A DNA stretch of 52,793 bases, the filler included, from Squatina squatina (lineage: Eukaryota), in the NCBI GenBank assembly GCA_031763465.1. It is 3 parts of 3 records of this genome, joined end to end, with 100 filler letters (N's around TTAATTAATTAA, not from the genome) between each part and the next. Parts side by side here need not be neighbours in the genome. Positions count along the whole stretch, not along the records: positions 13,295 to 37,778 come from JARFOE010000046.1; 2 more parts are not named here. One strand, 5' to 3'. The notes beneath the pieces were generated by a model, which was not told the DNA's origin, searched no databases, and saw only the letters and a program-made list of their open reading frames with translations. A program made the position numbers and the translations under genes. Shown here one piece after another: positions 3,211-32,599 of the stretch; position 1 is the stretch's first letter; every line of letters begins with the position of its first letter.

Positions 3211-3684
3211 GGGATCCCAGCCTGCAGCACTGACCAAGTACAGGTCGAGCTATCGAGGGTTAATCTTGGAATTACTACTGATTTTTAGATGCCGTTTGTA
3301 GGAAAGTGGCTAAAGCTGCGAAGATATTGCAGTAGAGCAGCGCATTTACCATTGTGTTTATTTGTCTGACAACAAGGCTTGTTTCCAAAGCTGATACTAT
3401 TTGTAGACTGTACTTGACACAACATTCCGTACTTTATCTCAAACCTTTCCTTGCTCCCGAAATAGCTGGTCCTTTTTCGGATGTCCTCTTCTTCCCGTGT
3501 TTTGTATGTTGAGGTGTTTTTGACCTGTCGACCTCTCAAAAGATTTATTTTCTGTTGTACGTATGTTTGTATTTATTTATTTTTGGTGGATCTCCTATGT
3601 CATTGTTCACTGTACTCCGGAACCTGGCGTGCAATTTCTGAGGGTTATTAGAGTCCCATGGCAAACAAAGCACAGCAGCAGTTT

Positions 3685-3932
3685 GTAATTACTGAAATAC
3701 TGCAGGATATTCCACTGTAATTACTGAAGCACTGCCGGAGATGCAACAATAATTACTGACGCACTTCAGGAGATTCCACTGTAATTACTGACACACTGCA
3801 GGAGATTCCACTGTAACTGCTGGCACGCTGCAGGAGATTCCACTATAAATATTGACGCACTGCAGGAGATTCCACTCTAATTACTGACACACTGCAGGAG
3901 ATTCCACTGTAATTACTGACACATTGCAGGAG
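3685..3932 (+). repeat. 32-bp minisatellite, about 8 units, truncated by a gap
   Basis: Consensus GTAATTACTGACACACTGCAGGAGATTCCACT. Unit starts at 3685, 3717, 3749, 3781, 3813, 3845, 3877 and 3909. Confidence 0.95.
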
Positions 3933-21164: not shown

Positions 21165-22008
21165 GGATAGAACAGGGTACTTTCTAAATGGTAAAAAGCT
21201 CAAAGAGACTTGGTGGTTCAGGTACATAGATCATTAAAATGCCATGGATAGGTACAGAAAATAATCAAAAAGACTAATGGAATGCTGACCTTTATATCTA
21301 GAGGACTAGAGCACAAGGGGGTATATGTTATGCTGCAGCATAGATGTTATGCAAACATAAATGTTATGCAAAAACCTGGTTAGACCACGCCTGGAGTTCT
21401 ATGAGCAGTTCATACCGTGGGAAGAATATATTGGCCTTGGAGGGAGTGCAGTATAGGTTTACCAGAATGATACCCGGACTTTATAGGTTAAGTTACGAGG
21501 AAAGATTACACAAATTAAGGTTGTATTCCCTAGAACTTAGAAGGTTAAGGGGTGATTTGATCAAAGTTTTCAGGATATTAAGCAGAACAGATAGGGTAGA
21601 TAGAGAGAAACTATTTCCGCTGGTTGGGGATTCTAGGACTAGGGGACATAGTCTAAAAATTAGAGCCAGATCTTTCAGGAGTGAAATTAGGAAACACTTC
21701 TACACACAAAGGGTGGTAGAAGTTTAGAACACTCTTGGTGCTAGATCAATTGTNNNNNNNNNNCCCCCCCCACGGGGGGGGGGGGGGGCGGGGTGGGAGG
21801 GTAGTAGTTTGGAATTCTCTTCCGCAAACAGCAACTGATGCTGGATCAACTGTTAATTTTAAATCAGAGATTGATAGCTTTCTGTTAACCAAGGGTATTG
21901 AGGGATATGGGCCAAAGCGGGTGTATATGGAGTTAAATCACAGATCAGCCATGATCTCACTGAATGGCGGAACAGGCTCAAGGGGCTGAATGGCCTCTCT
22001 ATGTTCTG
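21165..22008 (+). mobile_element. CR1 LINE 3' portion (RT C-terminal region plus 3' UTR), interrupted by a 10-N gap
   Basis: LEGVQYRFTRMIPGL..LSYEERL..L.LYSLE.RRLRGDLI.VF...RTRGHSLK...F.TQRVV is the typical CR1 ORF2 end, followed by a gggctgaatggcct tail. Confidence 0.93.
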
Positions 22009-29262: not shown

Positions 29263-30368
29263 ACACTCTCGTAACTCCAGCAGGAGTTTGAGGGAAATGT
29301 CTCAGATTCGATCGGGAGGGATTATATCGGCTCCCAACTTTCCCCGGAGCCCCTGTCTCGCCTTGTGGGAGAGGAGCTCCTTCTGCTCTAAGCTAAGCTG
29401 TTGATGCAGGGATGGGCAGGGACGGGGATTTGGGGATTTAGGGACAGCGTTACACCTGGCAGCAGTGGGTCCCTGAACAAAAAGGGGTACTCTTTTTAAA
29501 AAAAAGAATGATTTCCAGGTGCAAATGAAAGTCTTTTCCTGGAGTTGGGAAGGGGCTGGCAGGGAGTATTCCGACACTACCCCAGAACTATGGCAGTCAT
29601 GCCACCTGTTGCTGCCTGTGGGTGAAGGAGGTGTCCTAAATGTGTCCTTCGGACCTGGGCACCTATCATTAGATGCGAATCAAGGGTTCTTCCCCCTGAG
29701 CCAGTCAACCTTGGAGATCCCAGCACTTACAGCAGGTCACAGACACCCACCCCATGGATTTCGGCCCCAGTTACAGTTTATATTTTAATTAAAGACTCTC
29801 TTTATTTACTGCGTTACGATTTATTTGATGTTGTACAACTGTTTATCAAGCACTTTAAAAGACAGATTAATTTGTTAATTTGTTTGGAGGTTCTTTAACA
29901 AATATTATATAACTTTGTCCTTCTTGGAATTACAATTGCGAAGTTGATTAAAACAATTTAGTTTAGAGAACAGCTTTTAGCAATGATATCAAATTTTTTG
30001 TTCAGACCCCAATTCTAATCCATTCATAAATATATTGAAAATAGTAACAATTGCACAGATGAACGTGCTTTACCTGTCCAGCTTATTTGCTGCATCAATA
30101 ACTCTATTGCCATTCTTACAACACTGATGCTTGTGACATCCTGCCTGGCCCAGCCCAGGCACATTATAGGGGACTGAGACATTGCCTTTTTACCCCTGCA
30201 GCCTGCCTAAAAAGAGGAACGGTGACCTCCTATTCATAAAATCAATCGTACAGCACAGAAGGAGGCCNNNNNNNNNNNNNNNNNNNNNNNNNNNNNNNNN
30301 NNNNNNNNNNNNNNNNNNNNNNNNNNNNNNNNNNNNNNNNNNNNNNNNNNNNNNNNNNNNNNNNNNNC

Positions 30369-32069
30369 TCAGTTTTAAAGGAGTCCTTATGCAAAGAAGA
30401 AGACTTGGCCATGTCAGTCAAAGGAATTGGCCCATCAGCTCATGAGGAGCAGTCATTGCTTGTGGAAGAAATCTCACCTATAAGCGAGGAGCTGCTATCT
30501 CCAGTTGAGGAAGACAGTATGTTCAATATAAAAGAGTTAAACTCTCCAGTTGATGAATTAATGTTATATGAAAGTGAAGCCTCTCCACCTCCAGCTGAAG
30601 ATGATATCTCATTTGAAACTGAAGACTTTCCTCCGCCACCTGAAGAAATTATTTTGTGCATAAACGAAGAGCTTCCATCTCCATTTGGAGAAAATGCATT
30701 TGTTAGAATTGAAGACCCACCACCGCTATCTGTTGATAACACTTTGATAAATGAATGGTTACCATCTTTAGGTGACAAACGCAACTTATTGAACGCTGAT
30801 GATTTCACTCCTCTTCCTCCTCCTCCTCCCATGGAAGAAATAGGTGAAGAAAGGAACATCGCTGCAACAGAGAAGTGCAAGCATCCACTCAGAACAAGTG
30901 GAGAAGAGGAAACCAGCACTCAGTTTGGTGGGGAAGATCTTATTTTGTCTGAATCCTCAAAAATTCACATACCTCAAGCAGAACAACAAACGGCAGATCC
31001 TTTAAGGTCCTTTAATATTGGAGACCGGGTGTTGTTGAGTCAGAGAGAGTCTGGTACCTTAAGATTTAAAGGGCGTACATCATTTGGTCAGGGTGACTGG
31101 GCTGGTGTAGAACTGGATAATTCAAAAGGAGACCATGATGGAACCTTCTGCGGAGTGAAATACTTCGAATGCATGAATAAATGTGGCATTTTTGTTACCC
31201 CCGACAAGATCTCATACCTATGGGCTGATTATGAAGTTGACACAGATGTTACAGACAGTGAAGACTCATTCTCTGCTGGACCATCTGCACGAAGCTACAA
31301 AAGTCTGGACGATGAATTGAAAGAAACTCATTCCTTTGAAGAGGAACCTGAAGAGAAAGCCAATGAGAAGGGAAATATTTCCCAGCTGAGAAGCAAAAAG
31401 CTAACTTCGCACCAACTCAACCAGGGAGAGCCACATCCGGGCGCTATCGATGAGCAAGAACTAGAAGAGATAATCCTGGAATGCGCAAAGGCAGTAGAAT
31501 CATTTATAGGTTCGCAAGACTTGTTGGATGCTGAAGTAGAACCAAAATTGCATTTGGATGCACATGTAAACTCAGAAGGCTCAGTCCGCGCACGGGCTTT
31601 GCAGTGTCCTCGGGGTAAGGACAGTGAGCAGTCGGTGGACGACGTTACAGAACACCTCACGGAACACCTTGTAGAAGAAACTTTGGGTGAACTGACCAGT
31701 ATCAGAGAGCGGCAAAATCGAGGCACCACAGAGACGAGGGAAAAACAGCTCGCTGGATATCGAATCACACAAGACTGTGCTAACCTGACTCAACAGAACA
31801 GAGGTCCACTTAAAGGGCAGAGAGGCCATGACGAACCCTTCATAGATGTTATTGACTTTTTAGGAGTAGACTGTATGCAGTGCAAAGATCAAATTAGAGT
31901 TGCGAAGGGAGGCTGCAGCCAAGAAGCCATAGAAAACGTGACTGAAAATTTAATAGCAAAGTTCAGAGATGATGCAGCAAAAGATTACACAAAAATCAAG
32001 AGAAGACACGATGGAAATTTAGAAGCAAAAAATATCCTCTGTCCTCAGACTGTGGTGGATTGTTTGCCT
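30369..32069 (+). CDS. CCDC187: Large internal exon of a CEP350-family protein with CAP-Gly domain, probably CCDC187 (5' boundary uncertain at the gap)
   Basis: The frame is open from the gap edge to donor CCT|gtgagt. CAP-Gly at about 31011-31219 (FNIGDRVLL...GTLRFKGRTSFGQGDWAGVELD...YFEC...GIFV.P.KIS) resembles CEP350, with CEP350-like helices downstream. The symbol is inferred from divergent adjacency to GPSM1, as recalled for human 9q34.3. Confidence 0.75.
30486..30830 (+). repeat. Coding tandem repeat of about 8 x 15 aa (45 nt) acidic proline-rich units
   Basis: EELLSPVEEDSMFNI / KELNSPVDELMLYES / EASPPPAEDDISFET / EDFPPPPEEIILCIN / EELPSPFGENAFVRI / EDPPPLSVDNTLIN / EWLPSLGDKRNLLNA / DDFTPLPPPPP. 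Confidence 0.8.
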
Positions 32070-32134
32070 GTGAGTACAAATGCTATTAAACACAAATAAG
32101 GGAAAGTGTTTCAGCAAAATTGGCAAAAGAACCA

Positions 32135-32375
32135 GAGGGGAGATGAGATTTCTTTTTATGCAGCGAGTTGTTGTGATCTGGATGCGCTGCCTGAAAGGGT
32201 GGTGGAGGCAGATTCAATAGTAACACTCAAAAGGGAATTGGATATATACTTTAAGGGTAAAACATTTCAAGGCTATGGTGAAAGAGCAGGGGGGTGGGAC
32301 TAATTGAATAGCTTTTTCAAAGAGTCAACACAGGTGGGATGGGCATTCTGTACTGTATGAGTCTATGATTCTATA
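32135..32375 (+). mobile_element. CR1 LINE 3' end
   Basis: LPERVVEADSIVTLKRELDIY followed by a (ttctatga) tail. Confidence 0.85.
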
Positions 32376-32399
32376 ATTTTGCCACATGACTTGCAGTAA

Positions 32400-32599
32400 T
32401 GAAAGAAAGAATAAACCTTTATTTATATATCACCTTTCACATCCCCAGGGCATCCCAGGCCCATGAGAACCAATGGATTACTTTCAACTATAGTCACTGT
32501 TGTAATGTAGGCAAACACAACAGCCAATTTGCAAACAACAGTGTCCCAAAGACAGTAATGAGATGAAGGACTAGTTAAGCTGTTGGTTGAGGGGTAAAT
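32400..32599 (-). mobile_element. Deu-domain SINE 3' half, diverged
   Basis: Colinear with 27866-28075. Confidence 0.75.

Follow-up and report, generated by a model that had tools for sequence, protein, structure and literature searches.

The acidic repeat that precedes a CAP-Gly domain in Squatina squatina is likely to be an expanded copy of a cassette of jawed-vertebrate CCDC187. Within this cassette, the EVH1 domains of Ena/VASP proteins are the likely partners of two acidic [FL]-P-x-hydrophobic-P motifs, and an upstream LSP[VIL][DE]E element is predicted to dock PP2A-B56. As far as sequence comparison can tell, CCDC187 is probably an Ena/VASP ligand with multiple motifs and, beside them, a candidate phosphatase dock, all within one deeply conserved cassette. 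The candidate PP2A-B56 site is a new element, overlooked in an earlier note on the same DNA, and the features of the locus are collected in Table 1.

Table 1. Features of the locus, positioned along the window, i.e. the whole stretch of DNA analysed (52,793 nucleotides)
Feature	Position	Strand	Details and basis
Stop-free frame	30369-32096	+	576 aa (P0001); begins directly after N gap
Visible part of one large coding exon, chondrichthyan CCDC187 (CEP350 paralogue)	30369..32069	+	Orthologue alignment, relatives, tree
About eight degenerate acidic 15-aa (45-nt) units	30468..30836	+	Direct repeats, periodicity
Two tandem candidate PP2A-B56 docking motifs	30471..30512	+	ISPISE 30471-30488 and LSPVEE 30495-30512; B56 pattern (PMC5586252)
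ELNSPVDELMLYES, unit in register with EILSPVDEVLSYGS of bony vertebrates	30534..30575	+	B56 position 1 is N, no match here
EDFPPPPEE, first class I EVH1-type motif	30621..30647	+	Core FPPPP 30627-30641; also fits FxxP
DDFTPLPPPPPMEE, second class I EVH1-type motif	30798..30839	+	LPPPPP 30813-30830; pattern and alignment
Intact CAP-Gly domain	31017..31211	+	Residues 217-281; PF01302, E 3.8e-22, sole Pfam family found
Predicted helical segments toward the family's C-terminal region	31635..32030	+	Residues 423-476 and 518-554; AlphaFold2, pLDDT about 70-89 in most of these helices

Gene and exon identity

The 5′ end of the exon is hidden by an N gap (30268-30367), the scaffold carrying more than 30 such gaps, mostly of 100 bases each. 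Orthologue proteins align with the exon over about 565 aa as a single piece, without an intron gap, up to a donor-like GTGAGT at 32070 which closes the alignment, and thus the repeat and the CAP-Gly domain belong to one exon. The last proline run ends about 62 aa before the domain, in agreement with the earlier placement of the repeat some 60 aa upstream of CAP-Gly in the same exon. Searching the 52.8-kb window, itself gappy, by tblastn to an E value of 5 recovered no further CCDC187 exons. The exon is covered by contigs from two runs, presumed to be RNA, of a relative about 90% alike, with one contig spanning 30655-31938; these contigs reveal neither transcription nor splicing of the exon.

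The closest relatives of the window protein are shark, ray and chimaera proteins annotated “CEP350-like”, followed by coelacanth and tetrapod proteins, many of which are named CCDC187. A tree was built from CAP-Gly and its flanks (21 rows, 105 columns); in it the six CEP350 rows formed a 99/99 clade that left the window outside, and the CCDC187 rows did not resolve into one clade. By these sequence relationships, the window gene is a CCDC187-type paralogue rather than CEP350 proper. A frameshift, real or due to an assembly error, was observed just before CAP-Gly, where tail residues 1881-1898 of the white-shark protein (Carcharodon, P0010) match window positions 30959-31012 in another frame.

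The repeat array

The 15-aa period is well beyond chance. At protein lag 15 the score was 0.44 against -0.81 +/- 0.23, equalled in none of 2000 residue shuffles over lags 5 to 45, and at DNA lag 45 the identity was 0.48 against 0.28 +/- 0.025, equalled in none of 1000 codon shuffles. One unit is one codon short, giving a spacing of 87 (45+42). The claim of about eight 15-aa units is thereby borne out, and both EDFPPPPEE and LPPPPP lie where they had been placed. The proposed consensus E-[ED]-[LF]-P-[SP]-P-x-[ED]-[ED] did not hold, fitting only one unit. On the other hand, the statement that one or two units are canonical was correct, as two of about eight fit [FWYL]PxΦP, namely FPPPP at 30627 and LPPPP at 30813 (residues 87 and 149 of the window protein, 62 residues apart). 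A row of three or more canonical FP4 motifs, as in zyxin or ActA, was not found among the window units; two is the usual number of motifs in CCDC187 orthologues. In chondrichthyans the same cassette elements are dispersed over about eight 15-aa units, and from the alignments, the array of eight units arose by expansion of a shorter cassette in cartilaginous fishes.

AlphaFold2, run on a 56-row alignment, gave residues 1-220 without secondary structure, in a poor model of mean pLDDT 52 in which CAP-Gly also scored low. A PDB sequence search with the repeat returned no matches, and an ESM Atlas search with the turtle block gave no usable match.

Orthologue sample

Conservation was followed in 138 orthologues, one per genus: 12 chondrichthyans (with the window), 3 non-teleost ray-finned fishes, the coelacanth, 25 amphibians, 11 turtles and crocodilians, 67 birds, 6 squamates and 13 mammals. 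Same-genus duplicates, unnamed Logan proteins, one owl model starting inside the block and five models ending before it (P0260, P0307, P0308, P0316, P0330) were left out. One of the orthologue searches used the coiled-coil region and was hence blind to the repeat; it gave the best 120 of 331 matches, and rodents and teleost CCDC187 are unsampled because of this. Among the matches listed there was no teleost CCDC187, gar, lungfish, monotreme or rodent, and the teleost matches were CEP350. Since orthologues are not independent and about half of them are birds, kinship was addressed by clade weights (70 sequences) and by parsimony (124 sequences, from which chondrichthyans and two polypterids were left out).

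Two conserved EVH1-type motifs

Ligands of class I EVH1 domains follow the pattern [FWYL]PxΦP, with multiple motifs and linkers of about 15 residues being enriched (PMC8789275), and acidic flanks are preferred by Ena/VASP (PMC11237882). The core pattern is a frequent one, with 4,994 occurrences in the human proteome (PMC8789275). In bony vertebrates the cassette occupies about 65 residues, running from L-S-E-I-L-S-P-[VIL]-D-E-x-L-S-Y to motif 1, mostly [ED]-L-P-x-Φ-P, and then to motif 2, mostly D-F-P-[ST]-P-P-E, the two motifs mostly starting 18-23 residues apart compared with 62 in the window. The second motif of the window corresponds to DDFPSPPPPP in Callorhinchus and, in most tetrapods, to DFP[ST]PPE.

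At least one [FWYL]PxΦP was detected within the 150-aa block in 133 of the 138 orthologues and at least two in 109 of them; composition-shuffled blocks contained the motif in 8-15% of cases. Its density was 13.5 per 1000 aa in the block vs 0.17 in the remainder of the same proteins, an enrichment of about 80-fold. At least one motif was found in all 25 amphibians, all 6 squamates, 66/67 birds, 12/13 mammals and 9/12 chondrichthyans. The chondrichthyans are looser, with no motif in three of the 12 and at least two in just three; the chimaera, like the window, has both motifs together with an intact CAP-Gly. The reading of the earlier note thereby passes the conservation check that it had set, and the motif is kept far beyond chondrichthyans.

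With clade weighting, P2 and P5 of both motifs reached a conservation of 0.95-0.98 against a median of 0.26 outside, ranking second to fifth of 450 columns. Parsimony on a tree built without the block gave 5-8 changes for the P2/P5 columns, 3 for F and 13-14 for position 3, where the references are medians of 21 for the disordered background and 8 for CAP-Gly columns, and a range of 6-33 for proline columns of the background. In motif 1, position 4 underwent 15 changes, and it is hydrophobic (P, L, F, A, I) in 120 of 123 sequences. By column, motif 1 fits PxΦP in 87/124, which is an undercount as proline runs slip register in mammals. Moreover, the flanks are acidic in every clade, the mean charge of the 8 flanking residues being -2 to -4. 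Judged by its substitutions, a cassette with P2 and P5 fixed, position 3 free and position 4 hydrophobic in two PxΦP motifs bears the class I EVH1 signature, and we consider binding of these motifs to Ena/VASP EVH1 domains to be likely. The original EVH1-ligand reading is upheld as regards conservation and substitution pattern, but not as regards an ActA-like array of about eight motifs; selection acts on two motifs, the remaining units being degenerate copies.

No [FWYL]PxΦP was found within 400 aa upstream of CAP-Gly in six CEP350 and two amphioxus proteins, so the motifs are probably younger than the duplication. In human CCDC187 (NP_001365117.1) LSPVDE lies at 1988, LPPPP at 2012 and FPSPP at 2035. 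The cassette is present in six of nine human records (2077-2257 aa, including NP_001365117.1) and missing from the other three (1063-1485 aa), which is perhaps why peptide screens missed CCDC187. Across the human and chimpanzee records (P0337-P0350) the cassette was seen near the C-terminus of isoforms of more than 2000 aa and not in those of 1063-1485 aa. The long and short forms represent a possible isoform switch for the motifs.

The LSP[VIL]DE element

The best conserved stretch of the block is the EILSPVDEVLSYGS element of bony vertebrates. Its most constrained columns surround LSP[VIL]DE, with no change at L915 and three at E913 by parsimony over the 124 sequences. The pattern [LMFI]xx[IVL]xE is present at the aligned site in 112/124 bony vertebrates, and the L/F and V/I/L exchanges remain within the consensus. 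An I-[ST]-x-[IV]-x-E unit occurs in 12/12 chondrichthyans, each of which has at least two matches to the B56 pattern. Binding of B56 is strengthened by phospho-S/T or D/E at positions 2, 7, 8 and 9 (PMC5586252); in the cassette position 2 is Ser throughout, position 7 is D in the LSPVEED of the window, and positions 7-9 are V-L-S in most bony vertebrates. That the S-P units might be decayed or phospho-regulated had been suggested; decay is contradicted for one of them, since no element of the block is better conserved and its sequence agrees with the PP2A-B56 motif.

The assignment of LSP[VIL][DE]E as a PP2A-B56 dock is nonetheless a tentative prediction, slightly less likely than not to hold. 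The pattern is common by chance, appearing in 30-62% of shuffled blocks; it was not found at the aligned position in the coelacanth, nor in five of six squamates; and constraint exceeds the six B56 positions, covering about 20 residues with L915 invariant and also Y917, S919 and L922. For these reasons the element, with its wide constraint, may bind something other than B56. CCDC187 and LSPVDE gave no match in the searched portions of five supplements of PMC5586252.

The CAP-Gly domain and its loss

CAP-Gly was scored with an HMM made from CEP350 and CLIP domains at a threshold of 50 bits. It reached this value in all amphibians, turtles, crocodilians, birds and basal bony fishes sampled, in only 2/12 chondrichthyans (window and chimaera) and in 0/13 mammals; in these counts, the white-shark model and the six squamate models end before the domain. 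Nine of the other ten elasmobranch models have a decayed domain, and the tenth stops short of it. Decayed elasmobranch copies scored 6-34 bits vs 92 for the window and 98 for the chimaera, and a faint remnant was seen in marsupials and elephant. These scores point to a domain that decayed independently in most elasmobranchs sampled and in mammals, and that was lost at least twice.

The motif, in turn, was retained in 9/12 chondrichthyans, including most rays, and in 12/13 mammals. Because the motifs outlast the domain in mammals and most rays, and because CEP350 contacts microtubules via its N-terminus (PMC4357431), the motif cassette and not the motif plus CAP-Gly appears to be the selected unit. 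The linker module with CAP-Gly, as it had been proposed, is not supported as a unit of selection; on the pattern of losses the domain is a dispensable accessory, and coupling to it is not general. Binding of the repeat to CAP-Gly within the molecule was also considered and rejected as a general role, given that mammals keep the block without the domain.

Alternative readings

A distinctly unlikely reading takes the cassette as a double phosphatase dock, in which LSP[VIL]DE serves PP2A-B56, DFP[ST]P serves as FxxP for the EVH1 domain of PP4R3/SMEK and Ena/VASP has no role. PP4R3 does bind FxxP/MxPP and the centriole protein Centrobin (PMC7776573), FxxP is present at motif 2 in 112/124 sequences where PxΦP is present in 103/124, the F of this motif changes just 3 times, and 19 sequences (18 birds and one whale) keep FxxP there and lose PxΦP. 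Yet motif 1, which is equally conserved, fits FxxP in only 3/124, P2 and P5 are held at the level given above without being needed by FxxP, and ten sequences (sturgeon, coelacanth, five parrots, mousebird and two marsupials) keep PxΦP without FxxP, a pattern that moreover turns up in 32-72% of shuffled blocks. In the window FPPP fits FxxP and the second unit does not. Since motif 2 fits both patterns, PP4R3 (PMC7776573, PMC8786283) is a possible reader of that motif. Alternatively, the whole block could be one long element for a different partner (WW, SH3, another proline reader or a folded centriolar protein), its fit to EVH1 and B56 being incidental. The roughly 20 constrained residues around LSPVDE, some of them at positions dispensable for B56, would agree with this, as would position 3 of motif 2, mostly S/T and a possible proline-directed phosphosite; but a free position 3 and a hydrophobic-only position 4 in two separate motifs is the published EVH1 pattern, and we hold an incidental fit to be quite unlikely. 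The FBW7-type degron pattern TPxx[STE] gave 20 matches, mostly in amphibians and turtles, and is not conserved; reading VDELMLYE as an LD motif fails at position 8. The class II EVH1 (Homer) motif PPxxF, narrower as scanned than the [PIALV]Pxx[FWY] of PMC11237882, had none in the window and four matches in the 138 blocks, and is likewise not conserved.

The actin-microtubule linker of the earlier note, with CAP-Gly on tubulin or EB tails and the repeats on Ena/VASP, can count on an intact CAP-Gly in 25 amphibians, 11 turtles and crocodilians, 67 birds, 3 ray-finned fishes, coelacanth, chimaera and window, with the motif in all but one bird, and both features are missing together from two carpet sharks. 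However, mammals and rays hold the motifs without the domain, and the microtubule binding of CEP350 is N-terminal. In CAP-Gly domains that bind tubulin or EB tails the groove has the consensus GKNDG, which was not found in the window domain, where GDHDG is read instead (31128-31142). We regard such a linker as very unlikely. The chance that the repeat arose by tandem duplication in a disordered linker and is decaying neutrally, its proline runs being fortuitous, is close to nil: six of eight window units are indeed degenerate and motifs were lost in several sharks and rays, but across bony vertebrates constraint on the motif columns matches that on the folded CAP-Gly, and the motifs are far denser in the block than in the remaining protein. 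On the present alignments only the extra chondrichthyan units could be decaying neutrally; for the two core motifs this is already refuted.

Comparison with known systems

The preferred reading, a cassette of two EVH1 ligands preceded by a candidate B56 dock, has a close parallel in PCARE (C2orf71), the only cilium-linked EVH1 ligand among the matches of one literature search. PCARE is large and mostly disordered, with conserved EVH1-binding motifs at a cilium-related site, features that CCDC187 would share; ciliary tip expansion is reduced on deleting them (PMC9396937), and the EVH1 domain of ENAH is bound at 0.18 uM (PMC8789275). Unlike CCDC187, it is without CAP-Gly or CEP350 homology; it is specific to the retina, where it works together with WASF3 at the ciliary tip, and its binding is measured whereas that of CCDC187 is predicted. 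LPP, zyxin, NHSL1 and ActA also carry acidic [FL]PxΦP motifs, paired or clustered. The starts of the LPP pair are 20 residues apart (PMC8789275, Table 1), close to the usual spacing in bony-vertebrate CCDC187 and unlike that in the window. CCDC187 has two conserved motifs where zyxin has four, and it differs from multi-FP4 ligands in belonging to a centrosomal family and in having a candidate B56 site directly upstream.

The paralogue CEP350 (CAP350) has coiled-coil, CAP-Gly and C-terminal regions in common with CCDC187, and it joins microtubules to adherens junctions via alpha-catenin (PMC4357431). A B56 site found by phage display (PMC5586252) lies about 330 aa before its CAP-Gly, differing in sequence and position from the candidate site of CCDC187. 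PxΦP is absent upstream of CAP-Gly in the six vertebrate CEP350 sequences and absent altogether from the human isoform examined. With established PP2A-B56 docks (BubR1, RepoMan and, from Table 2 of PMC5586252, LSPVPE of ANAPC1), CCDC187 shares L-S-P-[VIL]-x-E and a phosphorylatable Ser at position 2; it departs from them in the non-acidic positions 7-9 of bony vertebrates and in its wider conservation, and its B56 binding is predicted.

Proposed mechanism

By homology, CCDC187 would be sited at centrioles, basal bodies or microtubules through the regions it has in common with CEP350; for zebrafish ccdc187 a centriolar or microtubule location is stated, citing other work (PMC13139549). There, the two motifs, spaced in most bony vertebrates like those of the bivalent LPP ligand, would hold one Ena/VASP tetramer, and the Ena/VASP so held would seed or anchor local actin filaments. 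B56 binding would be strengthened once the Ser in L-S-P is phosphorylated, letting PP2A tune the complex. Perhaps, then, CCDC187 is a vertebrate scaffold anchored at the centriole or basal body, to which Ena/VASP and PP2A-B56 are brought next to each other. Such a dock would nucleate actin at the centrosome under a phospho-switch, would be younger than the CEP350 duplication and would have outlasted CAP-Gly; in mammals it would act in the testis via long isoforms missed by peptide screens. Taken as a whole, this scheme is speculative and rather doubtful. CCDC187 is among the genes altered in azoospermia (PMC8875138), and a role in sperm building is plausible.

No paper linking CCDC187 with EVH1, Ena/VASP or B56 appeared among the best-ranked literature matches, and mentions of CCDC187 in the matches listed were, judged by title and abstract, in gene lists or unrelated. 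The gene is not named in the text of PMC8789275 or in the 12 of its 14 supplements searched. If the proposal is true, a direct Ena/VASP anchor would have been added to a centrosomal protein family. For the nearly uncharacterised CCDC187, the human protein included, the cassette gives exact residues to mutate.

Other observations

Of 14 proteins scanned, 7, all from bony vertebrates, share another conserved element 300-400 aa upstream of the cassette, in which L-x-E-F-x-[KR]-x-[ST]-A precedes hydrophobics and an S-E-S-type acidic stretch (e.g. P0023 at residue 513, P0011 at 501, P0052 at 1211, P0324 at 1540). It had no match in four chondrichthyan records, a marsupial, chimpanzee and human CEP350.

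Elsewhere in the window, an ORF at 21344-21727 resembles the tail of a LINE. A minisatellite of 32 bp (7.8 copies, 84% matches) extends over 3684-3932, with an N gap cutting through it. Directly 3′ of the exon, high-copy interspersed repeats occupy 32118-32590, where contig depth is very high.
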